DNA from: a virus
Lineage: Duplodnaviria > Caudoviricetes
Virus record (IMG/VR): IMGVR_UViG_3300016476_001378
Length of the DNA: 64,000 nt
Direction: 5' to 3' (one strand)
Shown: positions 1 to 64,000 of the stretch, one piece after another
Layout: each line of letters starts with the position of its first letter
How positions within the stretch are numbered: position 1 is the first letter of the stretch
Position numbers and translations under genes: made by a program
Notes under the pieces: model-generated
The model's database searches: none
What the model was told of the DNA's origin: nothing
What the model saw: the letters and a program-made list of their open reading frames with translations, nothing else

Positions 1-1059
1 CTCCTTAATTTCAAAGTATCCGTTGTAGACAAAGTCCTTAAGCGAACTATAGCCACTATAGCTTACCGCAGATGAAATTCCGCCCCAAAGGTCTGAAGTT
101 AATCTTTCAAGAGAAAGAATAGGATCTTCAATTTTGAATTCTTTTCCTTCAGAGTGTCTGGTTGCTTTACCTTGGGCGATTAATTGTTGCTTTTCAGAAG
201 CGCCGCCCCAATAGGTGCCATCTCCTGCGAGATTTGTTTCTGCTTCTTCGGCCCTTACAAAATAACCGCCCATCATAACAGCGTCAGCACCAGCACCGAA
301 AGCCTTTGCAGCGTATCCACTATTCTTTATACCGCCATCTGCCACAATTCTAACATCACATTCAACAACTTTTTTAATAAGTTGTGGTGCAATATTGTGG
401 GAGCCAGTTTCAGCAAGCCAATCTGCACATTCATTAATTTCGGTAATTTGGCCCCTATTGTAACCTGTTGAATCATTTGTGGAACAAGGTGAACCACCAG
501 CGATTCCTACACGAATGTAAATAGGACAATCCAAGAAAGAAAGTTCATTTACAAGATTAAAAACACCATGTGCGGTATGAACATTACCAATCATAAGATT
601 GTCAATCTTGGCAATTTCAGCAATCTTTCTTACCGCATTCCCAATAGCCTTATGCATGTAACCATTAGCCATATCAATAAGCCAATTAGTAACACCTGCT
701 TTGGCCAATTCTGCCACACGGTCAAAATCATTAAGACCAACAGAAACAAAGACATTGGAGGTGTCTTGAAGAGATTTGAAAATTTGAATTTGTCCATTTG
801 TGGAACCCCAATCTCTATCTGTAGGAACAGATGAAGGGAAGCGATGCAAACACAGCCCTAAGCCCAATTCATTTGCCTTTTTGGCAAAATCTAAACCAAT
901 GATGGCTTGCATAGGGCTTACATACACTCGATTTAATTCAACAGGGATGTTCTTTCTAGAAAGGGCCCCTAAAGTATTATTCTCATCTATCGCAGTTGGT
1001 CTGGCGAGCAGATTGACATCATTATAGTAAATAGATTTCTTTTTTGTGAATTTTGGCAT
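1..1059 (-). CDS. IMP dehydrogenase / GMP reductase family protein (3' end runs off the window)
   Basis: Not in the ORF track. Manual translation from ATG 1059: MPKFTKKKSIYYNDVNLL..., catalytic-loop-like IRVGIAGGSPCST, VADGGIKNSGYAAKAFGAGADAVMMGGYF, YWGGAS, SEG; no CBS insert; frame open to base 1. Confidence 0.85.
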   Translation of the reverse strand, partial: MPKFTKKKSIYYNDVNLLARPTAIDENNTLGALSRKNIPVELNRVYVSPMQAIIGLDFAKKANELGLGLCLHRFPSSVPTDRDWGSTNGQIQIFKSLQDTSNVFVSVGLNDFDRVAELAKAGVTNWLIDMANGYMHKAIGNAVRKIAEIAKIDNLMIGNVHTAHGVFNLVNELSFLDCPIYIRVGIAGGSPCSTNDSTGYNRGQITEINECADWLAETGSHNIAPQLIKKVVECDVRIVADGGIKNSGYAAKAFGAGADAVMMGGYFVRAEEAETNLAGDGTYWGGASEKQQLIAQGKATRHSEGKEFKIEDPILSLERLTSDLWGGISSAVSYSGYSSLKDFVYNGYFEIKE

Positions 1060-1072
1060 TTAATTTTCCTTT

Positions 1073-2509
1073 TTATCGAACGACAACACTTCCAATAATC
1101 TTTTTATCGTTTGTGCTTGAGATAACCACACTAAACATCTCAGAGATATTATTGTCTCTTTCAAGCAAGCCAGCTAAATCTTTAATCTTTTTATCTACTG
1201 TAATTTCAGCAAAAAGTGTCTGTCCTGAAAAGTCAATGATTTCTGATTTGATGATAGAGGTATTCTTCTTTAACAAAGCAAGGAATCTATTAGCAGAGCT
1301 TAGGCTTTGGAAACCAGAAATGTTCATTACATAAGTTTGGTCTTCAGATGCTTCATCTTCAATCTTGCTTAATGATGTAGCTATTTTGGAAATAGCCCTA
1401 TTAATTAGTTTTTGTGAAGCTTCTTTGACAGCTCTATCATGCCCAGCCTTATTAGAAACATCAATTACAGCAGCTTGTGTACTATCTGTGTAAATAATCT
1501 CAAAAGGTGAAAGATTTACTGCTCTTACGCTCATGGAAACTCTTGTAGAGTTTTGATTAATGTTAGTTGAATCAATTACACCATAAATAAATAGTTTTGC
1601 GCCAGAAGTTCGTGCGAGATTTCTACAATACTCTGCAAAGAATTCATTATTTTGGGCCCTATTTTTATCAAATGTTCCACCAATGATTACTTTTGCATTT
1701 GAATCTGATAAAGCATTAATAAATACCTCTTCTGCGACCATTGAATCTGGGAATGACACCACTGTGCGAATTTTATTCAAGTTATAAGTGGTGTTATTTT
1801 CAATAGCAGTGGTTTTAGTTGGTTCTTCAATATTTAATCTTTTAATCTGCTTAGATAAATCTTTTAATGCAGCATCTAGGGCAGCACTTGAGGCATTGGA
1901 AACAGCATCTGATTCAAACCCCTTTGTGCTTTGCGAAAAGATTCCAATAACTCTGTTCTTTACCAAAGCTCCTGCACCAGCGGTGCTTGAAATTTGTCCA
2001 TCTTTAGAAGCTTTGCCTGTAGATGATGCTATTACAGTACCATCTCTGGCGATCATTTCGATTACTACTTCAACAGAAGCTTGCACTTGCTTTACCTCTT
2101 GTCCTGCGACAACACCAACAATTGCAAGGGCCCCATTTTTCTTTTGACCTTCCTCGAATTGTCGAATTGTACCAATGATCCTATAATCTGCAGACTTTAG
2201 CTTTACAGTGCCTTCATCATCTGATGCTCCCGTTTGTCCTAATTGATTTTCTTGCATCAGTGTGTCGATGTTTTTTCGTGTTACAACTGTGAAGCCTTCT
2301 TTACGAAGTTTATCTGTGAATAGAGCTGCAAAAGAATCGCCCAATGGTGCTATACTTTGTGGATAGTGTGAGCTAACAAAAGCCTGTGTTTTAGGACTTA
2401 CAGCCTGCAGCTTAAATGATTCAACAGCGATTGTTCCTTTAATCTTTTGTGAGAATGATGGCAAAGTTAAAGTTGCGATTAAAAATAGTGTATAGATGAT
2501 TTTTTTCAT
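1073..2509 (-). CDS. Secreted CsgG/HfaB-like (TolB_N-fold) envelope protein
   Basis: Signal peptide; CsgG-like stretch FTVVTRKNIDTLMQENQLGQTG...ADYRIIGTIRQFE; second similar alpha/beta repeat downstream. Confidence 0.6.
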   Translation of the reverse strand: MKKIIYTLFLIATLTLPSFSQKIKGTIAVESFKLQAVSPKTQAFVSSHYPQSIAPLGDSFAALFTDKLRKEGFTVVTRKNIDTLMQENQLGQTGASDDEGTVKLKSADYRIIGTIRQFEEGQKKNGALAIVGVVAGQEVKQVQASVEVVIEMIARDGTVIASSTGKASKDGQISSTAGAGALVKNRVIGIFSQSTKGFESDAVSNASSAALDAALKDLSKQIKRLNIEEPTKTTAIENNTTYNLNKIRTVVSFPDSMVAEEVFINALSDSNAKVIIGGTFDKNRAQNNEFFAEYCRNLARTSGAKLFIYGVIDSTNINQNSTRVSMSVRAVNLSPFEIIYTDSTQAAVIDVSNKAGHDRAVKEASQKLINRAISKIATSLSKIEDEASEDQTYVMNISGFQSLSSANRFLALLKKNTSIIKSEIIDFSGQTLFAEITVDKKIKDLAGLLERDNNISEMFSVVISSTNDKKIIGSVVVR

Positions 2510-2525
2510 TTTATTTTCCTATAGA

Positions 2526-5195: not shown

Positions 5196-5208
5196 AAAGG
5201 AAAATTAA

Positions 5209-5601: not shown

Positions 5602-5635
5602 TTGTATAATTAATAATTGAATCGTATCTCCGACT

Positions 5636-5668
5636 AATAACCTAATGATTTTTATTCATTAGGTTATT
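5636..5668 (+). terminator. Intrinsic terminator
   Basis: 13-bp stem aataacctaatga/tcattaggttatt followed by T-run after erpA. Confidence 0.7.
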
Positions 5669-5726
5669 TTTTGTAGGGCCCCATTATTTATTTAATGTAA
5701 TATTATCTTGGAGTGAATAACTAATT

Positions 5727-7223: not shown

Positions 7224-7846
7224 TGTTTGATTTAACTTTATTCTTAAAAGATGCATTAAGTTTGTTAGCAATTGTAGAACCACTGGGCGCAATCCCAGTG
7301 TTTCTCACACTAACATCTTCCTTTGGTCCCGTTAAGCAAATCAGAACAGCTAAAAGAGCTGCTATGGCTGGCTTCTTAATTTTGTTGTCAGCTCTTGTAT
7401 TTGGTAAATGGTTATTGCAGATTTTTGGTATCTCTTTATCTTCTATTAGAGTTGCTGGTGGCCTCATGTTTATTGTCATGGGTATGCAGCTTGTTATTTC
7501 TGAGCCTGTTAAGATTACAGAAAGTGAAATAGAAGAGGCAGAATCCCATTCTGATGTAGCTGTTGTGCCCTTGGCTTTACCAATTCTTTCGGGGCCTGGT
7601 GCAATGGGAGCTGTTATTCTTTTAGGAAGTAAAGGGGCCCCTTTTATTCAAATACCAAAAGTTGGTTTGATTATCGGCATTGTAATGTTTGTTTCTTACA
7701 TCTGTTTTAGATTAGCCAGGCCCATAGGAAAAAAGCTAGGAGTCACAGGCTTAAACATTTTAAATAGAATAAGCGGTCTGATCGTCCTAGCTATTGGCGT
7801 AGAGTTTATTTTAGCTGGTGTGCATGAAATTTGGAAGGGACTTTAG
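7223..7846 (+). CDS. marC: MarC family membrane protein
   Basis: Multi-TM; PLGAIPVF and VAVVPLALPILSGPGA signature. Confidence 0.9.
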   Translation: MFDLTLFLKDALSLLAIVEPLGAIPVFLTLTSSFGPVKQIRTAKRAAMAGFLILLSALVFGKWLLQIFGISLSSIRVAGGLMFIVMGMQLVISEPVKITESEIEEAESHSDVAVVPLALPILSGPGAMGAVILLGSKGAPFIQIPKVGLIIGIVMFVSYICFRLARPIGKKLGVTGLNILNRISGLIVLAIGVEFILAGVHEIWKGL

Positions 7847-7856
7847 TCCCTTCTTT

Positions 7857-8312: not shown

Positions 8313-8313
8313 T

Positions 8314-9216: not shown

Positions 9217-9229
9217 AGTTCACTTATTA

Positions 9230-14319: not shown

Positions 14320-14367
14320 AATACTATTATAGTGTAATTAATTTATTTTTAAGACAAAAATGGGGCC

Positions 14368-15873
14368 TTATTGGGGCCCCATTTTATTTACCTCTTCTAG
14401 AAAGCTTAAAGCTGACCTGATTAAATCATACCTTTCGGTATAAACAGCTTGCTTCATGATGTCAATTGGTGAAATAACTTCGCCACTAAGAACCGCCTTC
14501 AAAATAGAAGGAGAGCAACCAGAAACAAGACAAGTGCCTGTATCATGAATTGTCATAGGAACATTTGCAGCTCCATTAACATTCCAGAAAATAAGATCTG
14601 GCATCTTGTAATTATACTTAGCATAATTCTTTTTGATTTGTTCAAAATTGGTTCTACTATTTGAATTACATGCTTGATCAAATTGCATATCAGAAACGAT
14701 AAAGATCTTTTCTGGCATGTCTTCTGGTGCAACACTATCAGCCTTTGCAGCCTTAAGAATGCTCTTGAATACAGCAACCAAGTTTGTATTATAACCCCAT
14801 TCAGCTTGTTTAAGATTATTGGTCTTATCTACAATTGTGTGACCAATAATGGTTTGCATTTCTGGAGCTTCAGAAAATGTAATAAATTTATTTTTCCATA
14901 CTCCAGAATTTTTCTCAGCTATATAAATTGCCAAAGAAATACTAACATCAATTGGCCTAACATTTCCATTGGCCAACATCATGGATCCAGATGTGTCCGC
15001 TACAACTAAACCTTTGAATGATTTACCTTCCATGTAATCTGGAAGATTCTGCCAAAGAGCTTGAAGAGCAAGTTCTTCTGTTGGATCAACACGGCCATAA
15101 GTTTCCCTTACCTTTTCTACAATTTCATAAGGATAAAGTGCAGAAGCATTAACTTTATTTTCAAGCTTTACAGCTGAAAGCATAAATTGATTATATCTCT
15201 CAAGATCATGTTTCATGAATGACTTGCGATACATCAGGCCAGCCTTGGAAGGGACCTTAGAATAATCAATTTCTGACCAATTATTTGAGCACATTTTATG
15301 CTCTACAAGGTCAATCTTCTTGCGAAGCTTGCTAAGCATTAAGCGGTATTCTTTTTCAGAAAGACCTAAGCGCTTTGCAAATTGTCTTCCAAGAGACTTG
15401 GTCGCTTTTGAAGAAGCATTGATAGACGGCATCCACTTGGCCAAAAGTGATGGATGCTCTGTTTCTGGGTCGTTGTCATGATTCAATTTTGATATAACAA
15501 AATCTACTACACGATTCCAGTCAATACAGCCATCAAGCACGAAGAGATCATCCCAGCGCCCATAAATAGGTACTAAAGGAATAATTGCTTGGCGAATTTC
15601 AAAAGGTGTGTTGAGAAGAAGATGGCGAAATACTTTTCGCTCACCCTGACCGCCACGAATGTCTCTGCTGTTAAACAGGATACGAAGTGCAGTTTCAGGA
15701 TCTTCTTCTAAAGCTCTAAGATAAAGAGCTGTAATGGCATCTGGATCTGTTCTAGATGCAGAAATCTTACCAAATAGATCTACATTAAGATCTAAAGTGG
15801 ATTTATAAGCTTTGGCCCCATTTGTAGTTTCAGTGGAATTAAGTTGTTTTTCCAAAGCATAAATAAAAGACAT
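14368..15873 (-). CDS. DUF2828 family protein (Ro60/TROVE-like helical domain plus vWA)
   Basis: TTNGAKAY, RDIRGGQGER, YGRWDDL, AKWMPS, IDYSKVPS; vWA MIDAS DTSGSM, WGYNTN, SDMQFD, FWNV, VSGCSP. Likely start ATG 15873 (GGAAAG SD). Confidence 0.88.
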   Translation of the reverse strand: MSFIYALEKQLNSTETTNGAKAYKSTLDLNVDLFGKISASRTDPDAITALYLRALEEDPETALRILFNSRDIRGGQGERKVFRHLLLNTPFEIRQAIIPLVPIYGRWDDLFVLDGCIDWNRVVDFVISKLNHDNDPETEHPSLLAKWMPSINASSKATKSLGRQFAKRLGLSEKEYRLMLSKLRKKIDLVEHKMCSNNWSEIDYSKVPSKAGLMYRKSFMKHDLERYNQFMLSAVKLENKVNASALYPYEIVEKVRETYGRVDPTEELALQALWQNLPDYMEGKSFKGLVVADTSGSMMLANGNVRPIDVSISLAIYIAEKNSGVWKNKFITFSEAPEMQTIIGHTIVDKTNNLKQAEWGYNTNLVAVFKSILKAAKADSVAPEDMPEKIFIVSDMQFDQACNSNSRTNFEQIKKNYAKYNYKMPDLIFWNVNGAANVPMTIHDTGTCLVSGCSPSILKAVLSGEVISPIDIMKQAVYTERYDLIRSALSFLEEVNKMGPQ

Positions 15874-22694: not shown

Positions 22695-22738
22695 ACAAAA
22701 TAAAAGGGGGCCCCTTTTTAAATAGAGGTCCCCTTTTA

Positions 22739-23290
22739 TTAATTAAATTTGCTTTTTAAATCATTTAGCGCGTCAGGTGGAACTCCTGACAAACTAACAT
22801 TTGTTATTCTTCCATCTGGAGCCTTTAAAACAAGATTATTCTCTGTGAGAGAATCTACCATAAGATAAGGTATGTTCTCATCATTTGTGGGAATTAAAGC
22901 GCCAGGTGAAACATAATTATGCAAAACCTTATCGCCCATGCGAGTTTCCAACACTGCACTAACAGTTCCATTAAACATAATTCCAGTTAGGCCATAATTA
23001 AAGCTTGGCAAGGGAATCTCTGCTTGTTGTCGGGGAGTTAATTTAGTTTCTGGAAAAGTAACCGAACTTCTTTTGGCTGAAATTTCAGTTAATTCTAGTT
23101 TGGGCTTTGCTTCAAAAGGATCGCTGCGCCAATCTTTTGCTTCTACCCTTAATGGTTCGAAAGCTTTTTTGCTCGGTTGAACTACTTGCGGGTCTGATGT
23201 AGTGGTTACTACAGGTGGATTATAAAAACAGCCACCTAGAAGAAATAAGAAGAGCGTAGCGTATTTTTTAAAAATTTCGCCCGCCACCAA
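22739..23290 (-). CDS. Putative lipoprotein, PilP/GspC-like
   Basis: Lipobox-like KKYATLFLFLLGGC; RSDPF and LTGIM...AVLE beta-domain reminiscent of PilP; coupled to the STN gene. Confidence 0.5.
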   Translation of the reverse strand: MVAGEIFKKYATLFLFLLGGCFYNPPVVTTTSDPQVVQPSKKAFEPLRVEAKDWRSDPFEAKPKLELTEISAKRSSVTFPETKLTPRQQAEIPLPSFNYGLTGIMFNGTVSAVLETRMGDKVLHNYVSPGALIPTNDENIPYLMVDSLTENNLVLKAPDGRITNVSLSGVPPDALNDLKSKFN

Positions 23291-29481: not shown

Positions 29482-32178
29482 TTATAAGATTTTCACTTTA
29501 GGAAAATCTGTCAATACTTCAAATCCCATGTTGTCCCAATGCCTTTCATCAGCAAAAGGCCTGAAATTAATCCAGTAAGAGTTATCAGGATTCCAAGTCC
29601 TTTGTTCTCCAATCTCATTTAAAGTGTGATAAATTAAATGAGTGTAATTAACATTTATTTCGTCAAATGGAAAATCAACAGGCAATGGAGAGTCTGCAAC
29701 AAGATAGCCGTCTTCTGTGATTATCACTCTGTTTTTAGAAACATAAAGGTCAAATTGAACTCTTCTATCTAATCCCTGCCATGTTCTATTCAAAGGGAAA
29801 TTTTGTCGCTCGACACTAGGTCTAAAGAATATATCTCCCTCATATTTACCTGAAGCTGGATTCTTAACAGCGCGATAAATGATAGAACCAGAGCGAGTGG
29901 AGCAATAAGCATCCATCAATTTAGTTAATGAATCTTTAGATGTCTGTTTGATCCACCAATTGTCAGCAGAAAAATTAATATCATCTAATACTTTTAATGT
30001 ACTATCTGTTAATTCGTACTCTGCAGTATTACCAAATTCACCAAACTTTATCCAGCCTGATTTCATTGTCGCACCAGAATTTAGAATAAACACTGGGAAT
30101 TTATTTCCATCATTGAAGTTTGCAACCCATTTAGCATTAATTTCATTGCCATTTTGAGTCACAGAATCAACAGAGAATGTGCCCACTTTATATTCAGTTG
30201 AATAATCAACTCTTCTGTAAGGTTGTGGATAAGAAAAAATACTATTTCTGTCAGCATACTTTACTGGAATTGAATATGATTTTCTAGAACCGTCAGGATT
30301 GTAGCCAGTATCAACATTTAAAACATGGCTTCCTGAACCAATCGTCCACCTAAATAATTTACCAGAAACAGTATTCCTGTCTATCTTATCTGCTGCCTTG
30401 CCTGAATATACTACTTCATTTGCTGGCAATAATAAAATGTCACACCATCTTCTAGGACTAAAGTGAGGATCAACTTCAAATGTAACATGAAGAACTTTAT
30501 TACCTGTTATGTTTGCAGTTTTCTTGGGGCTCATTAACATGACACCATTACTTTGATGCGCCCAGCCTGGAACTGGCATGGTGGCACCATCATAAAGTGT
30601 ATCCATGAAGTGAGAACCCATTAAGAACACAGTGGAATGATTTGTGTCAAGGTCGTCCAGAAAGAAATTCCACTTATCATTTTCATACCATTTTAAAAAT
30701 AAATAACTTCTGTCCCACCATTGTGTACCAGGGCCCCCTAATCTATACTGAACAATCTCAGGTTTTTGAGGCAATTGAACTATAGGTTGGAAGTTTCTAA
30801 AATTATCAAAGAAAACTTGCTCTCCAGTTAATTTTCTTTCAATTGTAGTAACTCTATAAGGTGCTGATTTTGTAAGAACAATAGGGTTGTTTGAAGGATC
30901 GCCATGGCCGTTTACGCCAGCATGAATTTCCCCATTTAAGCCGCTGGCTCCAGGTCCGACCATACCATCTATTTTTTGGTAAGGCCCCATTTTGTCAAGA
31001 GCTTCAACAATCAGATCATAAGATTGATTAGAAATTAAACCATTCATTTCAACCATGTTGTGACCTGATGAATATTTGACTGAATTTGGATTATTAGCGA
31101 CATAGACACGATAATCTACAGCACCAGGAACAAGATCAAATTTAACTACTACACTATCATCATTAGGAATGTGACCTGTAATGTTGACAGGAGTAGAAAT
31201 GGATTGAGGCGGCCCAAATAAAGTAGTAACATCAATAGATGGCCCAAATGTTTCTTGTTCTGTAAATTTATTATGGTTTACAGAAGAAATAACGTATCTG
31301 TAAGTTTTGCCAGATAACACATTTGTATCTATGTAATATTGAGACCACAACCCAGCGGCGACTTTAACACCATCCCTGTATACATTATAGCTTTCTGGTG
31401 TATTTTGTCCATAAGACTGCTTGTCTTGCCATTTAATAAAGTTTCTGGGTCTACCATTGTTCCATTCACCCCTGGCAACATAATTGCCAGGAGTAGATGG
31501 GTAAGAAGAGAACCAAGAAAAGTTATAATTTGGCGCATACTGTCCAGCCGCCATTGTTAAATTAGAAGGGAGAGACTCAAGCCCGTATTTGTCAACTGCA
31601 GTGACAGTATAAGTCCAGCCCCCTTGCCAGATGTACTTATCAACAGTAAAAGAATTAGTTGTGCTAGAACCTATTTTTGTGTCGTATCTGTAAATGTTAT
31701 AAGACACTACGTTTGGGCTGGAATCCCAAGCTAAAATGTCATAAGCTCCATTGTCCCAAACTCCAAGAGTTCTAAGATTTTTAGGGGCCTCTGGATTCTT
31801 AGCAACAAATAGAGGAATCACAGCAGTTGAAACATTAGAAAACTGGAGATAGCCAGACGGCACAACTCCACAAACATAATAATCCCATTTTTGCTGATAC
31901 TTTACATTTCTATCAATAAAAATGTTTTCATTATTAGTTAATTTTGCGTAAGGTTTATTATAATTTGGTTTAACACCCTGGCCAACTCTGTATATATAAT
32001 ACCTAGTGCATTTGGGAATCAAATCCCATCTTAACTTGACATGATAGTTAGAGGGCGTACCAACGCAATAGCATAATTCCACTTGTGTGGTAAAATTTTT
32101 TACCGCAGGTGGTTTTTGTGCGTAAACACCTGAAACTATAATGTACAAGAAACACCATAGAACAATAGCTTTCTTCAT
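29482..32178 (-). CDS. Large secreted fibronectin type III repeat protein
   Basis: Signal peptide; several FN3 repeats (W..., YNIYR, YTVTAVD..GLES, YNVYRDG). Confidence 0.75.
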   Translation of the reverse strand: MKKAIVLWCFLYIIVSGVYAQKPPAVKNFTTQVELCYCVGTPSNYHVKLRWDLIPKCTRYYIYRVGQGVKPNYNKPYAKLTNNENIFIDRNVKYQQKWDYYVCGVVPSGYLQFSNVSTAVIPLFVAKNPEAPKNLRTLGVWDNGAYDILAWDSSPNVVSYNIYRYDTKIGSSTTNSFTVDKYIWQGGWTYTVTAVDKYGLESLPSNLTMAAGQYAPNYNFSWFSSYPSTPGNYVARGEWNNGRPRNFIKWQDKQSYGQNTPESYNVYRDGVKVAAGLWSQYYIDTNVLSGKTYRYVISSVNHNKFTEQETFGPSIDVTTLFGPPQSISTPVNITGHIPNDDSVVVKFDLVPGAVDYRVYVANNPNSVKYSSGHNMVEMNGLISNQSYDLIVEALDKMGPYQKIDGMVGPGASGLNGEIHAGVNGHGDPSNNPIVLTKSAPYRVTTIERKLTGEQVFFDNFRNFQPIVQLPQKPEIVQYRLGGPGTQWWDRSYLFLKWYENDKWNFFLDDLDTNHSTVFLMGSHFMDTLYDGATMPVPGWAHQSNGVMLMSPKKTANITGNKVLHVTFEVDPHFSPRRWCDILLLPANEVVYSGKAADKIDRNTVSGKLFRWTIGSGSHVLNVDTGYNPDGSRKSYSIPVKYADRNSIFSYPQPYRRVDYSTEYKVGTFSVDSVTQNGNEINAKWVANFNDGNKFPVFILNSGATMKSGWIKFGEFGNTAEYELTDSTLKVLDDINFSADNWWIKQTSKDSLTKLMDAYCSTRSGSIIYRAVKNPASGKYEGDIFFRPSVERQNFPLNRTWQGLDRRVQFDLYVSKNRVIITEDGYLVADSPLPVDFPFDEINVNYTHLIYHTLNEIGEQRTWNPDNSYWINFRPFADERHWDNMGFEVLTDFPKVKIL

Positions 32179-43525: not shown

Positions 43526-43595
43526 AGTTTATTATGTGTTTAAAAATAACAAAAAGCCCCTTAGAAATTAATCTAAGGGGCCTCTTTTTAATTAA

Positions 43596-45835: not shown

Positions 45836-47155
45836 TTATATTATCTGTTCTAATCGCCCAGTTGAATCACCAATTTTTTCTTGTGGGATGCCTATTTTAT
45901 CTGTCATAGATAAAAATAGATTAGTCATTGGTGTACCATTATTAAATTTGTAATCTTTCCCAGATTTGATTTTGCCACCAGCATGACCTGCTACAAGAAT
46001 AGGAAGATCGTCGTGGTTATGTCTATCCCCGTCACAAATACCTGCGCCATAAACAACCATAGAGTTTTCCAACAAAGTTCTATCGCCTTCTTTGATGGAA
46101 TTCATTTTATCTAAAATGTATGCTAATTGTGTTGTATGGAAGGTATTTATTTTTCTCAAAGCTTCGAGCTTTTCTGGATTCCTTTGATGGTGGGACATTT
46201 CATGGTGTCCATCATTTACTCCAATCATTTTGTAAGCTCTATTTGAGCCTTCATTCGCAAACATAAATGTAGCAACTCTGGTGGAGTCTGTTTGAAAAGC
46301 TAGAACCATTAAATCGCCAAGAAGCTTGATGTGTTCTTCATAATCTGATGGAATCCCCTGGAGATTTTTAAGCTGTTTATAATCTGTAGATTCAGAAGTC
46401 ATCTTATTAGAAAATGCTATTCTTCTTTCAATCTCTCTGATACCAGTCATGTATTCATCTAGTTTAGCTTGATCTGTGCGCCCTAATTTTTTATTTAAAA
46501 TCTTAGCATCTTCCATGATAAAATCAAGAATGGATTTATCTTCTTGCATTCTCATAGCCCTTGAGATTGCACTCTCATTGGTATCGCCTTGGAATAGTCT
46601 TTCAAATAACAATTTGGGGTCAACTTCTTTAGCTACAGGTGTGCTTTCTGACCTCCAAGAGATAGAGTTAGAATAAGCACAAGAATAGCCCGAGTCACAG
46701 TCGCCCGCCAACCCACCTCTTTCACAACCAATTTCAATAGAGGCGAATCTTGTTTTGTCACCAATTTCGCGAGCAATGATTTGGTCAATAGAAATGCCAG
46801 ATTTAATATTGGCCCCTGAGGTTTTTCTTGGATGACAGCCTGTAAGCCAAGCAGCAGCAGATCTTGCATGGTCTCCAGGACCATCGCCAAGAGGGAAGGC
46901 ATTCTTTTGTGTCAAGCCTGACAAGACACTAAAATGACTTCTCAAGCTAGATAAAGGCTGTAAAGTAGAAGGCAGTGTTGAATTGCTTGGTATCCAATGT
47001 TCCATGTTGATACCATTTGGAACAAAGATAAATGCTGTTCTAATAGGGGCCTGAGGTGCGGAAGCATAGGCGCTATCAGGCATGATAGATTCCAAGAAAG
47101 GGAGTGCTAAAGTTACACCAAGGCCTTTCAAAACTGTTCTTCTACTTAAATACAT
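45836..47155 (-). CDS. DUF1552 family protein (Tat signal)
   Basis: LSRRTVLKGLGVTLALPFLES, GDHAR, SIDQIIA, YSCAYSNSISW, HHEMSHH, HNHDDLP. Confidence 0.9.
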   Translation of the reverse strand: MYLSRRTVLKGLGVTLALPFLESIMPDSAYASAPQAPIRTAFIFVPNGINMEHWIPSNSTLPSTLQPLSSLRSHFSVLSGLTQKNAFPLGDGPGDHARSAAAWLTGCHPRKTSGANIKSGISIDQIIAREIGDKTRFASIEIGCERGGLAGDCDSGYSCAYSNSISWRSESTPVAKEVDPKLLFERLFQGDTNESAISRAMRMQEDKSILDFIMEDAKILNKKLGRTDQAKLDEYMTGIREIERRIAFSNKMTSESTDYKQLKNLQGIPSDYEEHIKLLGDLMVLAFQTDSTRVATFMFANEGSNRAYKMIGVNDGHHEMSHHQRNPEKLEALRKINTFHTTQLAYILDKMNSIKEGDRTLLENSMVVYGAGICDGDRHNHDDLPILVAGHAGGKIKSGKDYKFNNGTPMTNLFLSMTDKIGIPQEKIGDSTGRLEQII

Positions 47156-47660: not shown

Positions 47661-50468
47661 TTAGAATTTAAAGCCAAACTTGGCCGCAGCTGTGTAATTT
47701 GCACTATTGGCTGCAGAACGATTATTGCTGTAAGTTCCTGTCAAACTGAAAGAGAATCTCTCTCCACTATTGTGTGTAAATCCTAAGGAATAAATTTCTA
47801 ATTCTCTAGATGATGAACCTGAGAAAAATTGATTTTTGTATTCGCTAATTAGGTTACTAGTACCAAATCTCCAACCTAACTTTAATCCTGTTTCATTATA
47901 CAGTGGAGAGCCTCCAGCCTTAACAATGACATCAGTTGGTGTCCCCTTTAAATATTCAACACTAGAATAAGTACCTGATAATTCAAGGTTATTAAATCTG
48001 GTAGCAAAGCCGTAACCACGCTTTTCAACCGTACTCAAAGTTCCAGGCTTTATTGGATCGTCAGGGTTTAAGATGTAATTGCCTTGCAAGGCCAATCCCT
48101 TAATTGCATTGACTTGCACCACTGTATTTGTAGTATCACTATTTAACAAAGGATTATTGTCTGTAGATTCTCTCATTTTGACAGAAGAATCAACTTTAAA
48201 TAGTGTTTTATTTGTACCGAAAGCTGCGCGATAATCTCTCACATCAATTCTTTGGGCCCCATTTGATGAAGTTGAAACTGCTGTTTGCAAAGTTGCTGTA
48301 GGCAAATTATAAGAGAATGAATGCTTCACAGATGAAAAAGTTCTGTCATTGATAGTGTTTTCTTGCTGTTCAGTTGTTAAAGTTATGTTCTTTGAAGGAA
48401 CAAGATTAACGCCTAGCCCAGTTTTAGTTTCTACTATATTCCCGTTCTCACTGTTATAGTTATTAACAGAAACTCCAACAGATGTGCCTCGACCCCAAAT
48501 TGGCGTAGAAACACTCACTGCATTATCTTTGACATCATGATTAGTGTTAGCGGTTTGTGTTGAGCTTTGATTTGCAGAAGCAACAACATTTGCAGAACCT
48601 ACTACACTTTGAATCTTAAACTTATCAGCTACACTATTTGTATCAATTTTGTTTTGTGTGGAATCTGTATTTGTTCTTTGAAATTCAAAACCTGGTGAAC
48701 GCTTTTTAGCAGGAGCTGCAAAACTAAATCTTTGTTGGTCAATTTTACCTGTTGTTTTATCAGAGCCAACAAGATCAGAGCTAATTGATTCAAGATTAAA
48801 CAAACCGGGGCCCAATTTTAAAGAAACATTGCCAGAGTCAGACATCACAGTATTGTTTTTGCCATCAGGAGTGTATGTTTCCGTGGTTCCTGTGCGAATT
48901 GTAAGGTTAGCGCCACCAACAAGGGATTTAACCTCTGTAAGCTCGTTAGAAGAGCCCACAAGCACACCCTTGTCATTTCGTTTTATGTTTTCATTTATTG
49001 TAAACTTTGCTACAGGCACAGATTTGGTAGATGGCAAAGAGAACAATAAGTTCTGTTCACTAACATCTTTTCTGTCAGTACCATTGACATTTGAATCAAC
49101 CTTGTTGAAGTTAAAACTAAATTGGGTTTTATTTAAACTCGCAGAAAAAGAACCTTTATCATTGATTGAATTAATAACTGTGTTATTTGTAGTGGTATCA
49201 TTCTCTACGCGCCCAAAATCAACTCCACCAAAACCATGTTTATTACCTTTAAATCCAAGATTATAAACTCTTTGGTCGGTTTGTATTGACCTGCTACCAA
49301 TTTGTGTATTAGTTTGATTTGACGCAAAACCCAATGTGCCACCAGATAATTTAGTATTGTAATTAACAGTATCTGTAACAGTGTCTATTTGGCCTGTTTT
49401 CGGATCTTGTTTGCTGTCAGTGGTACGATTGAATTTCAATTGTGGCAAGCTTGCAGACAAAACATTTTGATTAGTTACAGTTCGTGTTTTATTAGATGTA
49501 ACATCACTAGAAGTTGTTTTGTAGGCTAAATCTAAGGCCCCAAATTTTGAATTTAAATTACCATTCTCGCTACGATTAGAAGAAAATACACCCTTGGCGT
49601 CTGTGCCTTGTTGATCATTGACAGAATAATTTAAAAGGGGCTTATTCCCACCACCAAACTTAAAAGCAGCATTTTGAGTAGTATTTTCTACAGAACTATT
49701 TAAGCTCTTATTATCGTTAAAGTTAAATATTAAACTGCTATCTTTACTCGGGCTAAATTTTCCATTCAGAGAAGACACCTCGGAAGAGTCTGTTGTACCA
49801 AAACTCTTACTGTATGGAGAGAACCCTTTCCCGCCACGTTGGTAGGCTGCATTTAAGCCATTGGTATTATTGCCTGTTGCATAACCTAGCTTAACAGCAC
49901 TTTGATTCGTTAAGTTTGTTTGCCCTGTAACATTTGGGGCTAAATACAATTCACTATTTAAACCACCAGCTCTAGAAGCATAATTTAAAACAGTGGCAGG
50001 TGCTGTATTCATGCTGCTACTTGGGAATGTTGTTAATTGTAGATTCTTCACACCTAGGGCGGCCAATTTAAAAGTCAAAGGAGCTGTTAAAGCTGGATTG
50101 GAGTTCTTAGTAGCAGACTCTGGATAATAACTATAATTAACCTTGACAACTTGTGTTCTTTTGATTAGTTGGTTAAAAGTTATTTCACCCTTTTCTAGAT
50201 TGATAGAGTAATCGCTAGTTCGCAGGGGCAAATCATCAACAGTTACCCAGACAGGATAACCTGGTGCTAAGATGAAGTTTCTCCAAGAAAGAACATAAGG
50301 CCCCTTTTTATCTTGACCTAAAAAACTATCAGCTGTCCGATCAGGCTCTGAAAGATTAGACAAGGTTTTAGGAACCCTATTAATTTGTTGAAATAAGGGG
50401 GTTTGTTGTGCGAAGCTGGTCGCACTCATAAATATTATAATAGTAGTAATTGAAAGTTTAGAAAACAT
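47661..50468 (-). CDS. Large secreted beta-strand-rich protein, possible outer-membrane protein
   Basis: Signal peptide from MFSK (50468); DYSINLEKGEITF; S/T/N-rich amphipathic strands; ends AAAKFGFKF. Confidence 0.6.
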   Translation of the reverse strand: MFSKLSITTIIIFMSATSFAQQTPLFQQINRVPKTLSNLSEPDRTADSFLGQDKKGPYVLSWRNFILAPGYPVWVTVDDLPLRTSDYSINLEKGEITFNQLIKRTQVVKVNYSYYPESATKNSNPALTAPLTFKLAALGVKNLQLTTFPSSSMNTAPATVLNYASRAGGLNSELYLAPNVTGQTNLTNQSAVKLGYATGNNTNGLNAAYQRGGKGFSPYSKSFGTTDSSEVSSLNGKFSPSKDSSLIFNFNDNKSLNSSVENTTQNAAFKFGGGNKPLLNYSVNDQQGTDAKGVFSSNRSENGNLNSKFGALDLAYKTTSSDVTSNKTRTVTNQNVLSASLPQLKFNRTTDSKQDPKTGQIDTVTDTVNYNTKLSGGTLGFASNQTNTQIGSRSIQTDQRVYNLGFKGNKHGFGGVDFGRVENDTTTNNTVINSINDKGSFSASLNKTQFSFNFNKVDSNVNGTDRKDVSEQNLLFSLPSTKSVPVAKFTINENIKRNDKGVLVGSSNELTEVKSLVGGANLTIRTGTTETYTPDGKNNTVMSDSGNVSLKLGPGLFNLESISSDLVGSDKTTGKIDQQRFSFAAPAKKRSPGFEFQRTNTDSTQNKIDTNSVADKFKIQSVVGSANVVASANQSSTQTANTNHDVKDNAVSVSTPIWGRGTSVGVSVNNYNSENGNIVETKTGLGVNLVPSKNITLTTEQQENTINDRTFSSVKHSFSYNLPTATLQTAVSTSSNGAQRIDVRDYRAAFGTNKTLFKVDSSVKMRESTDNNPLLNSDTTNTVVQVNAIKGLALQGNYILNPDDPIKPGTLSTVEKRGYGFATRFNNLELSGTYSSVEYLKGTPTDVIVKAGGSPLYNETGLKLGWRFGTSNLISEYKNQFFSGSSSRELEIYSLGFTHNSGERFSFSLTGTYSNNRSAANSANYTAAAKFGFKF

Positions 50469-50486: not shown

Positions 50487-50512
50487 ATTATAGTACAAAA
50501 AAGAGGGGCCCT
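50487..50512 (-). promoter_or_regulatory. Putative phage promoter AGG-N17-TATAAT
   Basis: AGGgcccctcttttttgtacTATAAT; overlaps the dnaK terminator. Confidence 0.45.
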
Positions 50513-50545
50513 GTACTAGAGCCCCTCTTAATTCTGAGATAATTA

Positions 50546-52381
<1,836 letters not shown>

Positions 52382-54102: not shown

Positions 54103-54719
54103 TTTCTATTTCTAAAAACAATATTAGCTTCATTTTGCCAAGCATCATTAGCTTGCACTGCAACAATTTCAAAATTATGTTCAGTTAAGAATTTCATCAT
54201 TGTATCAATCATAACTTGATTTTTATAGAGTGCGTTGTATTTAATAGCAACTTCTACAACGCCTTCTTTAATTTTATGAATGTGTTCACCCATGCCTTTA
54301 AGTACATTCAAATCACTGCCCTGGGTGTCACAATGGAAATAATTAATGCATTCAATGCCATGCTCTTCAATAAAAGCATCTAAACGAATAACATCAACTT
54401 CAATCTGATCTGTGATTTCAAAGTGATGTTTTACAGGCCCCCAATTTGTTTCTAACTTATCTGAATATTCAAACAAACTTGAAGCACAATGATCCCCAGA
54501 CTCATGGGAAACATTGAAATTGGCTTTGCCATTAAAGTCACTTACAGCTGTTTTAAACACAAAAACATTTTGTAAATCTTTAGCTTTTTCAACTATCTTC
54601 TCGTATGATTGAGGAACTGGCTCAAAAGCATAAAGAGTTACTCTGTCAGGATAGTCTATGGCATACTGCAATGTAGAACTACCAACATTAGCCCCTACAT
54701 CAAAAATTATATCTTTCAT
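54078..54719 (-). CDS. FkbM family methyltransferase
   Basis: FDVGANVG, AFEP, AVSD, RLD, DTQGSDLNVLKG. Confidence 0.9.
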   Translation of the reverse strand: MKDIIFDVGANVGSSTLQYAIDYPDRVTLYAFEPVPQSYEKIVEKAKDLQNVFVFKTAVSDFNGKANFNVSHESGDHCASSLFEYSDKLETNWGPVKHHFEITDQIEVDVIRLDAFIEEHGIECINYFHCDTQGSDLNVLKGMGEHIHKIKEGVVEVAIKYNALYKNQVMIDTMMKFLTEHNFEIVAVQANDAWQNEANIVFRNRNQIFNNTK

Positions 54720-55159: not shown

Positions 55160-55444
55160 ATGTTTCCACTGGACACCTATTTAAAGAACTGTAAAATAAG
55201 AACTATGATGAATGATCAATTATCACCCGGCGAAACCATTGCTCAGATTATCAAACATAGAAAAATGAGCAATGCCAAACTTGCACAAGAATTAGAGATA
55301 AGCTTAAGTAGGCTAAATAACATTCTTACAAACAAAGAGAAACTGGATGAAGAAATGTTTCATGCACTGCAAATAGTTTTAGGGTTTCATCACAGTTATT
55401 GGAAAAGCTTGCAAGATAATTGGAATAACAAAAGGGGCCATTAG
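55160..55444 (+). CDS. HigA-like XRE helix-turn-helix protein
   Basis: SPGETI...MSNAKLAQEL.IS...I...W..LQ; real start may be at MMND. Confidence 0.75.
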   Translation: MFPLDTYLKNCKIRTMMNDQLSPGETIAQIIKHRKMSNAKLAQELEISLSRLNNILTNKEKLDEEMFHALQIVLGFHHSYWKSLQDNWNNKRGH

Positions 55445-55671
55445 GCCCCTTTATTTAAAAAGTTTAACTCTTGATAGAGAAATTCTTCTGGATCAATATT
55501 AAAAATCTCTAGTGTATTGTTGTCAAATGTTTCAAAGTTGAAACTATAGTCGTCGTGCACCACTGTTGCTATTTCTTCTTTATCCAACCTGTCAATGATA
55601 GTTTGCAAAGCTTGCTTTAGTGATTCTTTTGACGAAGCTGAAATAAGAGTGTTAAAATGTATTGTATTCAT
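55441..55671 (-). CDS. Hypothetical protein
   Basis: 76-aa ORF. Confidence 0.5.
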   Translation of the reverse strand: MNTIHFNTLISASSKESLKQALQTIIDRLDKEEIATVVHDDYSFNFETFDNNTLEIFNIDPEEFLYQELNFLNKGA

Positions 55672-59527: not shown

Positions 59528-59540
59528 TTATAGATACTTC

Positions 59541-60023: not shown

Positions 60024-60058
60024 AGAATCTTTTTTATAACTCTGTGAGGACTTTCCTG

Positions 60059-60601: not shown

Positions 60602-61175
60602 AAACCTCTTTGTTTTTTCTTGATTGGTTTTTCCAAATTTCTAAATCAAATTCTGCCATGTCTCTGTTTGATCTTTTTACATAATCTAAAAAGATCTTTT
60701 CAATATTTAAATACATTTTGATTGAAGAAGGAGTAGATTTTGGCACATTTATCCCTAACTCTTGTCTAATAAAATTAAGAATGTGCGTATCTAAAATGGC
60801 ATAATTTTGATTAGGTCTTGTATGGACAATAAAAAACCTACTTGTCTTAGGGCCTATACCATGGAAAGCTTCTAGCTCATCAGTTGAACATGTTTTTAAA
60901 TCTATACCTGATTTGGCTAGTTGGGAAAAAGTGGTTAGGAGTTTTTTATATTGTCCTATCTTAGAAGATTGAAGATTATCTAATAATGAACCTTCTTCAA
61001 GCATAAGATTAATTTTTTGAAAAGGAGAACCATTTGATTTATAAGATAAAAATGTTTCTAAATGCTTAGCCTGTATGTATGCTGTTTTACCTGCCACACA
61101 AGCGCAAAATAAAATAAGCTCTTCAAGCTCATCCTGAGTTCTGTTGTAATTTGTAATATTGTAAGGGTCTACCAT
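60588..61175 (-). CDS. HhH-GPD DNA glycosylase/lyase (Ogg-like)
   Basis: HGIGPKTSRFF, YAILDTH, Y..IE..F, DL.IW; likely start MVDP. Confidence 0.75.
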   Translation of the reverse strand: MVDPYNITNYNRTQDELEELILFCACVAGKTAYIQAKHLETFLSYKSNGSPFQKINLMLEEGSLLDNLQSSKIGQYKKLLTTFSQLAKSGIDLKTCSTDELEAFHGIGPKTSRFFIVHTRPNQNYAILDTHILNFIRQELGINVPKSTPSSIKMYLNIEKIFLDYVKRSNRDMAEFDLEIWKNQSRKNKEVYANE

Positions 61176-61197
61176 GTTATTATTATGGTGCATCGAC

Positions 61198-61223
61198 AGG
61201 TTTATAAGATTATTTTTTATAAT
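61198..61223 (+). promoter_or_regulatory. Putative phage promoter AGG-N17-TATAAT
   Basis: AGGtttataagattatttttTATAAT. Confidence 0.55.
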
Positions 61224-61247
61224 GACTCTTATAGGAGGGTGATTCAA

Positions 61248-61631
61248 ATGAACAAAATCGCTAAATCAGTTAAGCCAGACGAAATGGAAGGTGGACACAA
61301 GTCCCCACCTAAAGGATACCCACAAAAGGAAAGCAAGTATGCTGATCCTGTGAACTTTAAGTACCCTATTGACACAGAGAAACACGCTCGCGCAGCTTGG
61401 GCGTACATTCACCAAAAGAGAAACAAGAGCAAGTATTCTACAGAGGAATTTAATTACATCTGCGGAAGAATTAAAGCAGCATTAAAGAAATTTAAAGTTG
61501 AAATTGAAGAAGAACAAAAGAAGAAAGCAAGCATCTTAGAGGGCTTGCACAGAACAGCTTCAAGATTAGAAGATCTTGGTATGTTTAAAGAAGCTGAAGT
61601 TCTCAATGACACTTTTGATAAGTTAATTTAA
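61248..61631 (+). CDS. DUF6582-like protein with C-terminal shared tag
   Basis: Start MNKI (GGAGG SD); YADPVNFKYPIDTEKHARAAWAYI; ASRLEDLGMFKEAEVL. Confidence 0.7.
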   Translation: MNKIAKSVKPDEMEGGHKSPPKGYPQKESKYADPVNFKYPIDTEKHARAAWAYIHQKRNKSKYSTEEFNYICGRIKAALKKFKVEIEEEQKKKASILEGLHRTASRLEDLGMFKEAEVLNDTFDKLI

Positions 61632-61640
61632 GAGGGTAAT

Positions 61641-62018
61641 ATGAAACAAGTAGTCAGTAGCATTTGTGAAACTATAAATGAACTAGAAAGTAAGAACCTT
61701 TTTAAAGAGTCTGATACACTTAGGGGCATTCTAGTAAAACTTGTTACTGCAGACTTGCGTGATTGGTTTCAAGAAAAGTGGGTTGATGTCCGCCGAAAGA
61801 AAAAAGATGGCGGATATCATCCTTGTGGCAGAGGAGACATAAGTAAAGGCAAAAAGCCAGTATGCACCCCTGCTAATAAAGCTAAAAATCTTTCAAAAAA
61901 AGAACGAACTCAAAGAATGAAAGAAAAAGCTAGAAAAGAACGCGAACCAAATCCAGACAAAAAACCTAATGTAACACAATATTCAGAAGGTGCTGGTGGT
62001 AAATCCAATATATCTTAA
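61641..62018 (+). CDS. Basic phage protein with N-terminal shared tag
   Basis: INELESKNLFKESDTL; LRDWFQEKWVDV...PCGR...P.C.P. Confidence 0.7.
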   Translation: MKQVVSSICETINELESKNLFKESDTLRGILVKLVTADLRDWFQEKWVDVRRKKKDGGYHPCGRGDISKGKKPVCTPANKAKNLSKKERTQRMKEKARKEREPNPDKKPNVTQYSEGAGGKSNIS

Positions 62019-62038
62019 GGGGCCAAATTGGCCCCTTT

Positions 62039-62647
62039 TTAAATTAAAAATTCAGAATCTTCTATTTCTGACAGATTATCAAAGAAGTAATCTATAGAAT
62101 CCTGTCCATCAACAAGCATCATGGGTTGATAATGTGGTAAAGTTTTTAGGGCCCATTCTTTATTTTCTAAATGTTGTTTAATAAAAGTTTCAGCCCAAGC
62201 TTTATTCTTAAAAAACCGCATAGAATTTCCCTGATAAAAAGCGCTCATTGTCATGTTAGTACTACCATCCATGCAAATTGGGCTTTTTCTTTTATCTGGA
62301 TCTACTTTTACCATACCTTTCCAATGCCAGAAAGATCTTGTTTTAGAACTATTGGGGCCTGCAGATGTGAGTACAATGGAACTATTTTTAACTTTAGAAA
62401 ATAATTCTTTAATTTGAGGCTTGGCATACACACCTACTGCCTGTGTGTAGTCTAGCAACAGAGATTGTTTATAACCTTTACTATCTAACTCAGCTATTAT
62501 GTTAAAAGCCTCTGGAAGAGTAAATCCAAAGCTGCTAATAAATGAATCAGATGGTATGGCCAAAGTCTCTAAGAATCTTTCTTTTGCAATTTTGCCATCT
62601 TCTGGCAAAAAGTAATTATCTTCTTTTGCGTTACTAATTGTTATCAT
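62039..62647 (-). CDS. Phospholipase D-like (HxK) nuclease-fold protein
   Basis: FGFT, LLD..Q, WHWKG...GSTNMT.SA..Q.N. Confidence 0.65.
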   Translation of the reverse strand: MITISNAKEDNYFLPEDGKIAKERFLETLAIPSDSFISSFGFTLPEAFNIIAELDSKGYKQSLLLDYTQAVGVYAKPQIKELFSKVKNSSIVLTSAGPNSSKTRSFWHWKGMVKVDPDKRKSPICMDGSTNMTMSAFYQGNSMRFFKNKAWAETFIKQHLENKEWALKTLPHYQPMMLVDGQDSIDYFFDNLSEIEDSEFLI

Positions 62648-63029
62648 GGCTTACCCACTTTGCAACAATTGAAAATGGTTCTATGCCTGGCTCTAGAATG
62701 CAATTATAACTCATAGAAATAACCCCTGTCATGTCTTCTACAACTAAGAGGCCCTGGGTTTCTTTGATCATACTTTTAGCTTCAGAGGCAAAGGCTTCTA
62801 ATGTCATTTTTGCCAAAGTTAAAAAATTGCCTCTCATTTGAGTTTGCAAATCATTAACATCCATACTGTCATCTATGTTTTGGAAATACATAGCCGTGGG
62901 ATAAACTTCTGTGTATTCTGTGGTCAGGGGTGCTTCAGAATTAACTAAAGTAAAAGTAACAGCGATTTGATCGCCAGAAACTTCGGTGCTGTTTATAGTG
63001 TATGTTATATCAACATTAAAGTCGGCCAT
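62634..63029 (-). CDS. Hypothetical protein
   Basis: Likely start MADF (GGAG SD). Confidence 0.6.
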   Translation of the reverse strand: MADFNVDITYTINSTEVSGDQIAVTFTLVNSEAPLTTEYTEVYPTAMYFQNIDDSMDVNDLQTQMRGNFLTLAKMTLEAFASEAKSMIKETQGLLVVEDMTGVISMSYNCILEPGIEPFSIVAKWVSHDNN

Positions 63030-63090
63030 TTTTATTCTCCTATTGTTTCTTTTCAAATTATAAAAGAAAATAACCTCCCGAAGGAGGTTA

Positions 63091-64000
63091 TCATTCTACA
63101 TCAAATCGCTCGCCTGGGAACCATCCATGCTGTACCTGAAGTTGTTTGCACAACTTAAGATAAGCAACAGTGGAAGGGGTTGCTATACGTCCTTGACGAG
63201 TAACTTTAACTAGGGCCCCATCTATGATTTCGCCAGTAGTTGGATCTATAATCTCAATGTCTGGTTGACTCAAGAATGGCTCAATCATGTTTATCACATT
63301 TATCTCCTGCTGATTTATCATACCTGCAAGTGACTTAGAACCAATAGCTTTGCCTTTCTCGCTGTTTAACACGTTGAGATACTGGCGGGAACAACGATCC
63401 AAGCCCAAGAATGGATCTAAATCGAGGCCCTTAATGGTTTTCTCAAGGCATTCTAAATTATAGTCTTCTGAAGACAATACAGCCTTGTGAGAGGTGCCAT
63501 CTACATAGTCATGAAGATTCTTTAGTAGATGCATAGCTCTGCGCGGGGTACTTTGGCAAATCTTTGCCATGCTTTCAGTTAGGTCTTTGTCTAAGTCTAC
63601 ATTATATTTCTTCAAAGCAGACTTATTAATCATAAGTGAAAGCTCTTCGATAGTATAAGGCAGAAGCGATGGCTTCCAGCCGAATCGCTCCAAGAAAGGC
63701 TGATTGAGATTTCCAGCGTGAGTAGTCGCGCCTATCACAGTAAAGCGAGGGTATTCGATTCTTCCATGACCTCCACCCTCACGACGAATGTAATAGCAGA
63801 AGTCTTCCATGATAGTGTAAAACAATTCTTGAATCTCTTTTTTCATTGCATGAATTTCATCAATGAAGAGAACCATACCTTCAGTGACTGTTCGTTGCAT
63901 AAGGTGATAAAGATCAAGTTCTGTTTTAATGTTAGCAGCCATACACTCATGGAAATCTACACCAAGTTCGTTGGCAATAATTTTGGCAAGGGTTGTTTTG
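63091..64000 (-). CDS. ruvB: Holliday junction branch migration helicase RuvB (5' end outside the window)
   Basis: Frame stays open to the window end: KTTLAKIIANELG (Walker A tail), LFIDEIH, MEDF, FTVIGATT, RFG, TPR, GLD, IEPFL, TRQGR. Confidence 0.92.
   Translation of the reverse strand, partial: KTTLAKIIANELGVDFHECMAANIKTELDLYHLMQRTVTEGMVLFIDEIHAMKKEIQELFYTIMEDFCYYIRREGGGHGRIEYPRFTVIGATTHAGNLNQPFLERFGWKPSLLPYTIEELSLMINKSALKKYNVDLDKDLTESMAKICQSTPRRAMHLLKNLHDYVDGTSHKAVLSSEDYNLECLEKTIKGLDLDPFLGLDRCSRQYLNVLNSEKGKAIGSKSLAGMINQQEINVINMIEPFLSQPDIEIIDPTTGEIIDGALVKVTRQGRIATPSTVAYLKLCKQLQVQHGWFPGERFDVE

Follow-up and report, generated by a model that had tools for sequence, protein, structure and literature searches.

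What keeps a G/C-only palindrome at many times its expected number in an AT-rich phage genome? The question is raised by IMG/VR record IMGVR_UViG_3300016476_001378, a 64,000-nucleotide stretch of Caudoviricetes DNA analysed here over its full length (the window), in which an earlier note had counted at least 28 exact copies of GGGCCC and had proposed a HIP1-like iterated site. The count is borne out: a pattern search finds 28 exact sites in the 64 kb, at all 28 of the starts listed (963 to 63213), against about 2.2 expected from base composition and 4.43 ± 2.11 (maximum 9) in dinucleotide-preserving shuffles. GC content runs from 32 to 39% along the window, which agrees with the AT-richness then described. 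The iterated site is thus real, and as shown below it acts at the level of DNA, beyond codon and dipeptide usage, but its unit is not the palindrome. What is iterated is the asymmetric hexamer GGGGCC together with its complement GGCCCC (hereafter the word), and the GGGCCC excess is its by-product, a description of which we are nearly certain.

The iterated unit

The two candidates separate once the sites are divided by run length. Stand-alone GGGCCC (pure G3C3, the AGGGCCCT type) occurs five times where Markov simulations of orders 1–3 give 2.5–6.3, and G3C2/G2C3 runs number 27 against 29–46 under the same models. G4C2/G2C4 runs, in contrast, reach 41 (simulated 5.5–10.7), G4C3/G3C4 runs 13 (1.2–2.9) and G4C4 runs six (0.1–0.3); enrichment is limited to the classes that contain a run of four. 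Runs of G4C3, G3C4, G4C4 or longer enclose 23 of the 28 GGGCCC sites, and a C directly follows 62 of 86 G4 runs as against 90 of 259 G3 runs. GGGGCC and GGCCCC together amount to 73 copies in 65 distinct runs, about one per kb. Among the 64 hexamers composed of G and C only, this pair (73) and GGGCCC (56) stand far apart from the rest, of which the most frequent reaches 17, and an unbiased scan of all hexamers places GGGGCC at the top (z = 17). The near-matches that had been called plentiful are indeed so, with 37 copies of GGGGCC and 36 of GGCCCC on the + strand; the octamer GGGGCCCC, said to be the frequent context of GGGCCC, is present at 8 of the 28 sites.

Higher-order models, which had been suggested as a check, lead to the same unit. 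Under an order-4 Markov model the GGGCCC excess disappears (56 against 47.3, both strands counted), because the 5-mers GGGCC/GGCCC of GGGGCC account for it, while GGGGCC/GGCCCC still stands at 73 against 50 (z = 5.4). Under maximal-order models the 5-mers themselves are in excess, GGGGC/GCCCC at 126 against 73 and GGGCC/GGCCC at 125 against 81. The sole extension of the word is a mild preference for A before it and C or T after it (AGGGGCC, 39 against 3.5). A symmetric target, whether GGGCCC, GGGGCCCC or GGSSCC, was considered and rejected: pure G3C3 lies at expectation, GGCGCC is depleted (2 against 10.4), and GGGGCCCC is excluded because its central hexamer GGGCCC is not the favoured one. 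The lesson is a general one, that a G/C palindrome excess in an AT-rich genome should be split by run length before a palindrome is named. The sites and their classes are as follows.

450..63219, both strands: field of 70 G-run/C-run sites, 65 with GGGGCC or GGCCCC and five pure G3C3, about one per 0.9 kb
450..63219: run classes G4C2 (22), G2C4 (19), G4C3 (7), G3C4 (6) and G4C4 (6)
450..63219: longer run classes G5C4 (2), G3C5 (2) and G2C5 (1)
1654..1659, and starts 26390, 33888, 44691 and 62149: the only five pure G3C3 GGGCCC sites, a class that is not enriched
7634..7641, and starts 9247, 14373, 24831, 32332 and 43473: octamer GGGGCCCC, both word orientations within 8 bp
Starts 18873 and 22706: G5C4 runs holding GGGGCCCC

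Distribution and recoding

The word is spread over the window with little regard to strand, gene or reading frame. GGGGCC and GGCCCC are balanced at 37:36, neither orientation gives way to the other along the 64 kb, and each amounts to one word per 1.75 kb. About 91% of the window is coding by a simple call of open reading frames (ORFs), and 55 sites (78%) lie inside ORFs, evenly distributed from the start of a gene to its end. Genes hold 0.87 sites per kb and the DNA between them 2.13, some 2.4-fold more. Spacing is slightly regular (coefficient of variation 0.81 against 0.98, P = 0.047; per-gene dispersion 0.68). Within genes, 32 copies are in sense and 23 in antisense orientation, and all three frames of the coding strand are in use (17/6/9 for GGGGCC, 9/5/9 for GGCCCC). 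Genes shared with the family and genes without homologs in relatives are alike in density (0.93 and 0.78 per kb, p = 0.67). GGGCCC itself is located in ORFs of both strands and in intergenic DNA, as had been reported, and the dnaK, amtB, trxB-like and DUF1559 genes are without an exact site, as also reported; this absence is uninformative, because fewer than one site per gene is expected by chance. The word is present in all of them, in dnaK (51546), amtB (39430, 39743), the trxB-like gene (43110) and the DUF1559 genes (12794, 17263, 17788), and each long gene, dnaK, amtB and the trxB-like gene included, holds roughly its expected share.

Codon usage fails to explain these numbers. When codons are shuffled synonymously within genes, a control that had been named as decisive, coding GGGCCC remains in excess (21 against 3.25 ± 1.6), and so do GGGGCC (32 against 4.65) and GGCCCC (23 against 3.5). 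GGG-GCC makes up 17 of the 85 Gly-Ala pairs, though 9% of the Gly codons are GGG and 15% of the Ala codons GCC. Codon or dipeptide bias is ruled out by the synonymous shuffle together with the codon-pair comparison.

Comparison with relatives places the origin of the word within one lineage. The window has 73 copies in its 64 kb, whereas two near-complete relatives have 9 (in 358 kb) and 6 (in 300 kb); compared with sister phages its density is higher by a factor of about 45, and it was bought with amino-acid changes. No word excess was found in contigs syntenic with 41–57 kb of the window (DnaK 81% and DUF1552 protein 76% identical), in IMG/VR contigs with DnaK at 78%, or in contigs carrying the 898-amino-acid (aa) protein at 72–85% identity, and in none of the relatives examined, more than 25 related contigs and the two near-complete genomes, is the word iterated. 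GGGGGC does not exceed three copies at any of the related loci reached from the window. CpG in the window occurs at half its expected frequency; the 358-kb relative shares this CpG value (0.50) as well as the TA value (0.76), and its use of Gly, Ala and Pro is alike. In that relative GGG-GCC encodes 1 of 407 Gly-Ala pairs, against 16 of 78 in the window; for GGC-CCC the shares of Gly-Pro pairs are 5 of 171 in the relative and 9 of 31 in the window. A general compositional shift was therefore rejected: a relative without the word has the same dinucleotide signature.

At 19 orthologous word positions within shared genes, none has the word in any relative. Where the residues are conserved, the window deviates at synonymous positions only, sometimes at two per site, as in AAA-GGC-CCA to AAG-GGG-CCT or GAA-GCT-CCN to GAG-GCC-CCT; at other sites residues are replaced, Gly-Ser by Gly-Pro or Asp-Ser by Gly-Ala. 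Five such positions illustrate the routes.

46811..46816, − strand: DUF1552 gene; GGG-GCC (Gly-Ala) in the window, GGC-GCT, GGT-GCC, GGT-GCA or GGC-GCA in nine relatives
50299..50304, − strand: 945-aa gene; AAG-GGG-CCT (Lys-Gly-Pro) in the window, AAA-GGC-CCA or AAA-GGT-CCT, with the same residues, in five relatives
31784..31789, − strand: 898-aa gene; GAG-GCC-CCT (Glu-Ala-Pro) in the window, GAA-GCT/GCG/GCA-CCN in 16 relatives (72–83% identity)
51546..51551, − strand: dnaK; GAG-GGG-CCA in the window, GAT/GAA/GAC-GGT/GGC-CCA/CCC in nine relatives
54436..54442, − strand: gene 54078-54719 (−); TGG-GGG-CCT in the window, with an extra Gly codon, TGG-CCT or TGG-CCA with a one-codon gap in four relatives

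The relatives' codons at 50299..50304 imply that two synonymous changes were needed there; three further relatives have Ser-Gly-Pro at this position. The alignment at 54436-54442 shows that the word can be gained by codon insertion as well as by substitution. We take the word to be derived in the lineage of the window because many word-free clades surround it. The conserved residues are retained in every frame, so the sites are real and not assembly errors, and a 95%-identical protein from an independent dataset (P0001) carries the same derived Gly-Pro as the window, which likewise argues against an assembly artefact.

These comparisons show that, among the phages examined, only this lineage has spread GGGGCC through an AT-rich genome, with a site roughly every 0.9 kb. 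At the level of sequence they also show a directional, genome-wide and lineage-specific force on the DNA word itself, on both strands, because sites were newly made while amino-acid usage and dinucleotide signature stayed unchanged relative to relatives. Genome-wide recoding towards one hexamer is among the clearest evidence that sequence can give that a DNA word is read.

Between genes the word also builds hairpins. About 6 of the 13 intergenic clusters form strong structures of A-tract, hairpin and T-tract with the word in the stem, at folding free energies (dG) of about −19 to −23 kcal/mol, and three of these are inverted pairs of the form GGGGCC-loop-GGCCCC, the only such pairs in the window. 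Where two dG values are listed for 14357..14385, they refer to the two strands.

14357..14385: terminator-type hairpin between genes; stem GGGGCC ... GGGGCCCC, A-tract and T-tract flanks; dG −20.0 / −19.2 kcal/mol
22699..22740: terminator-type hairpin; stem holds GGGGGCCCC; dG −23.0
43556..43581: hairpin GCCCCTTAG ... CTAAGGGGC(C), then T-tract; dG −22.7 / −31.0
50501..50529: hairpin with GGGGCCC, between the 945-aa gene and dnaK; dG −18.6 / −23.5
55431..55452: inverted pair GGGGCC-ATTA-GGCCCC with A-tract and T-tract, of bidirectional terminator type; dG −19.9
62017..62037: inverted pair GGGGCC-AAATT-GGCCCC with T-tract, between convergent genes; dG −18.9

Candidate readers of the word

What, then, might read GGGGCC? 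A literature search returned no report of iterated GGGGCC or GGGCCC in a phage. Of the classes of explanation offered earlier, a word that some DNA-handling protein binds or recognises is still the best, and within it our leading guess, made by analogy, is a role like that of Chi. The statement as a whole, that the lineage-made GGGGCC is a selected recognition signal with a Chi-like role, is one that we put forward tentatively and would not yet call probable. The word would serve an enzyme that moves along DNA or recognises a single strand; it could tame a helicase-nuclease of the RecBCD/AddAB type and so shield linear phage DNA, and it might promote recombination-dependent replication. Phages rich in Chi, such as P1, LLS and MD8, use their host's Chi in this way. 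The presence of the word in some relatives and its absence from others would then come from a change of host, or from a phage anti-nuclease/recombination module having been lost. If a host helicase-nuclease is the reader, the phage would tell us which Chi-type word an uncultured group of freshwater hosts uses.

To our knowledge, Chi is the sole documented class of short asymmetric words accumulated by phages. Phage P1 carries 50 Chi in 94.8 kb and the lambdoid LLS 23 (one per 1.86 kb), so that both have about one per 1.9 kb. In either phage no octamer ranks above Chi, codons do not explain it, and in close lambdoid relatives it is present or absent according to their own recombination module (PMC12315714). 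The window resembles such Chi-rich phages (P1, LLS and its 'no Rec module' class, Pseudomonas phage MD8) in that an asymmetric G-rich word is the most over-represented of its length, stands about once per 1–2 kb, is independent of codon usage and is on or off among close relatives. It differs in that GGGGCC has 6 nt and is not a known Chi, in that the reader enzyme is putative, and in that the window comes from a jumbo phage of >270 kb whereas those are temperate phages of 40–95 kb.

Several points weigh against a Chi-like role. Chi orientation is strongly biased in LLS (20:3) and MD8 (32:0) (PMC12315714), and the word here has no such bias (37:36); equal orientation would fit a Chi-like role only if the ends of the phage DNA fall anywhere, as in a permuted genome. 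GGGGCC is a candidate host Chi, and the five bacterial genomes examined have neither a GGGGCC excess nor a homolog of the phage's DUF1552 gene. Relatives of the same dinucleotide signature, and so perhaps of similar hosts, manage without the word. The window does encode RuvB, which means that the phage has at least one recombination gene of its own. Lastly, a non-adaptive drive would be compatible with the sequence taken alone and has to be kept in view.

The reader may instead be an enzyme of the phage, acquired or re-specified by this lineage, for which GGGGCC would be a private self-mark set about once per kb; we regard this as unlikely, and if true it would mean that giant phages can depend on self-marking or priming of a novel kind. 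The candidates are a nuclease or packaging factor that tells own from foreign DNA and a primase that needs a G/C-only start site. In a priming reading, GGGGCC would mark where the phage's own primase recognises its template, and selection would supply it on both strands at roughly Okazaki-fragment spacing, since chance alone seldom yields primer sites of G and C only where DNA is AT-rich. In such DNA a primer site of this composition would also be physically sensible. One site per ~1.75 kb on each strand, equal strands, uniform density, slightly regular spacing and independence from transcription (32 sense, 23 antisense) would all suit it, and a primase change would account for the lineage-specific word. 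Phage primase sites are likewise short, asymmetric, G-rich template words read on a single strand and needed on both strands every 1–2 kb; the T7 gp4 primase reads the pentamers GGGTC, TGGTC and GTGTC. The regularity of the spacing is marginal, however, no primase gene was found in the window for comparison, and the hexamer is longer than known sites, the primases so far known reading trinucleotides in loose context; we know of no phage with a genome recoded to supply primase sites, nor of any genome recoded for a hexameric one. We consider priming improbable. The same holds, to a like degree, for a molecular drive without cellular function, in which a repair, gene-conversion or DNA-selection step favours copies of the word in the manner of DNA uptake sequences (DUS) and uptake signal sequences (USS). 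The DUS of Neisseria and the USS of Pasteurellaceae such as Haemophilus are words of 9–12 nt in competent bacteria, read by the uptake machinery. As with these, the word occurs about once per kb in equal orientations and in every frame, slightly evenly spaced, its making has been tolerated at the cost of amino-acid changes and one codon insertion, and its inverted pairs double as terminators. Yet it is a 6-nt word in a virus, where no uptake step is known and we know of no biased step of the other kinds, it has no consensus beyond A-GGGGCC-C/T where a receptor-read word has 9–12 nt, its one-mismatch neighbours are not generally depleted, and the phage-encoded type IV pilin is 84% identical in a word-free relative, so that pilins do not track the trait.

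Still more doubtful is a site for a phage-encoded double-strand DNA-binding protein with an architectural, transcriptional or packaging role, or else a terminator-stem block that has spilled into genes. The 2.4-fold higher intergenic density, the word-built hairpins in nearly half of the intergenic clusters and the existence of iterated intergenic boxes of their own in phages of the wider group (contigs L105, L100 and L113) point this way; but 78% of the sites are in ORFs, evenly spread and with no extended consensus, and the boxes of L105 and L100 are intergenic with a consensus of roughly 30 nt, unlike GGGGCC. Terminators alone were rejected as an explanation, three inverted pairs and some six hairpins standing against 55 sites in genes. 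The methyltransferase and repair loop of the earlier note, taken as a phage cytosine methyltransferase that targets the palindrome (GGGCCC or GGCC) and a Vsr-type T:G repair that inflates its count, appears very unlikely to us. Such a repair loop has been proposed for HIP1 (GCGATCGC) and is seen for CCWGG in E. coli. HIP1 is, like the word, a highly iterated G/C-rich site that recurs roughly once per kb both inside and outside coding DNA; it is a true palindrome, common to many cyanobacteria, with a core linked to methyltransferases. In the window the palindrome arises from overlaps of an asymmetric word, and that word is limited to a single narrow phage lineage; the HIP1 likeness extends to density but fails in its defining feature. 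GGGTCC/GGACCC is somewhat low (3 against 6.6), as a deamination loop would have it, but this depletion of neighbours is weak and inconsistent, and GGGGCT (1.3 times expectation) and GGGGTC (0.9 times) are undepleted. GGCC overall is hardly raised (330 against 294), the 6- to 17-fold excess far exceeds what such repair is known to achieve in E. coli, and no DNA methyltransferase was found among the ~50 window ORFs scanned. That there is no feature at all, and the pattern is an artefact of composition, codon pairs or assembly, we treat as already refuted. GGGCCC does lose its excess at order 4, and GGG-GCC and GGC-CCC do encode the common dipeptides Gly-Ala and Gly-Pro; the GGGGCC excess, however, persists at orders 1–3, at order 4 and under the synonymous shuffle, the word occupies all frames, the antisense strand and the DNA between genes, recoded sites keep conserved residues, and an independent dataset has the same derived state.

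Other words and gene content

The avoidance of palindromes that is usual in phages had been set against the GGGCCC excess, and other palindromic hexamers are indeed avoided in the window: CATATG (0 against 16), TGCGCA (0 against 9.6) and GCTAGC (0 against 8.4) are absent over its whole length, TTCGAA (2 against 15.2) and CTTAAG (12 against 31.3) are low, and in the maximal-order model so are ATAT (328 against 783) and GATC (276 against 418), a pattern typical of restriction avoidance. The palindrome CTATAG is raised (25 against 9.2 at order 2). In genes it numbers 17 against 12.9, not above the synonymous shuffle; its excess is probably intergenic, and it may be part of a promoter or regulatory box.

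Chi of the E. coli type, GCTGGTGG, has 11 copies in the window, one per 5.8 kb, nine of them on coding strands. It was rejected as a signal, being mostly Ala-Gly-Gly in preferred codons and exceeding the synonymous shuffle by a factor of only 2.6. TGGTGG and GGTGGTG, which likewise run high in relatives (G001, L083–L088), go with gene orientation.

Iterated words of other kinds were met in distant phage contigs. L105, from a distantly related phage, has seven copies of an intergenic box of ~30 nt, ACT-GGGCCCC-nnAAAGTGCATCAGTAATG, at 3485-21187, which looks like a promoter or regulatory element; its GGGCCCC excess was rejected as a second case of the word, since all seven sites are intergenic and lie within the box, and it is thus a different feature. 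L100 (15 copies) and L098 have an iterated octamer of their own, ACTGGCAC(A), mostly intergenic and with an extended consensus. L112 and L113 (37 copies in 20 kb) iterate TGAACAGT, about two thirds of the copies lying outside ORFs.

Pfam and PHROG matches assign to the window CsgG, Hsp70, Amt, DUF1552, DUF1559 pilins and secretin parts, together with tail-like and head-decoration-like proteins, ClpP, deformylase, an ECF-type sigma factor, an Ogg-type glycosylase and RuvB. A search with the 945-aa protein against viral contigs and GenBank phages gave no match. Relatives sit on IMG/VR contigs of 258–358 kb, which agrees with an uncultured giant (jumbo) freshwater phage. An adenylosuccinate-synthetase homolog at 6204-7223 (+), short at 339 aa and with a 62%-identity ortholog in the 358-kb relative, matches a PurZ-type PHROG family. 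A 2-aminoadenine genome, which this match might have indicated, was rejected: the protein matches structures of cellular PurA far better (E about 1e-58) than those of PurZ (1e-14 to 5e-21). A GHKL-type ATPase is encoded at 9329-10771 and a DEDD exonuclease at 13738-14319. Further genes for nucleic-acid functions cluster at 58649-63999, where a protein with HD and OB-fold domains, the peptide deformylase, the ECF-type sigma factor, the Ogg-type 8-oxoguanine glycosylase and a weak PLD-like match accompany RuvB (63091-63999).

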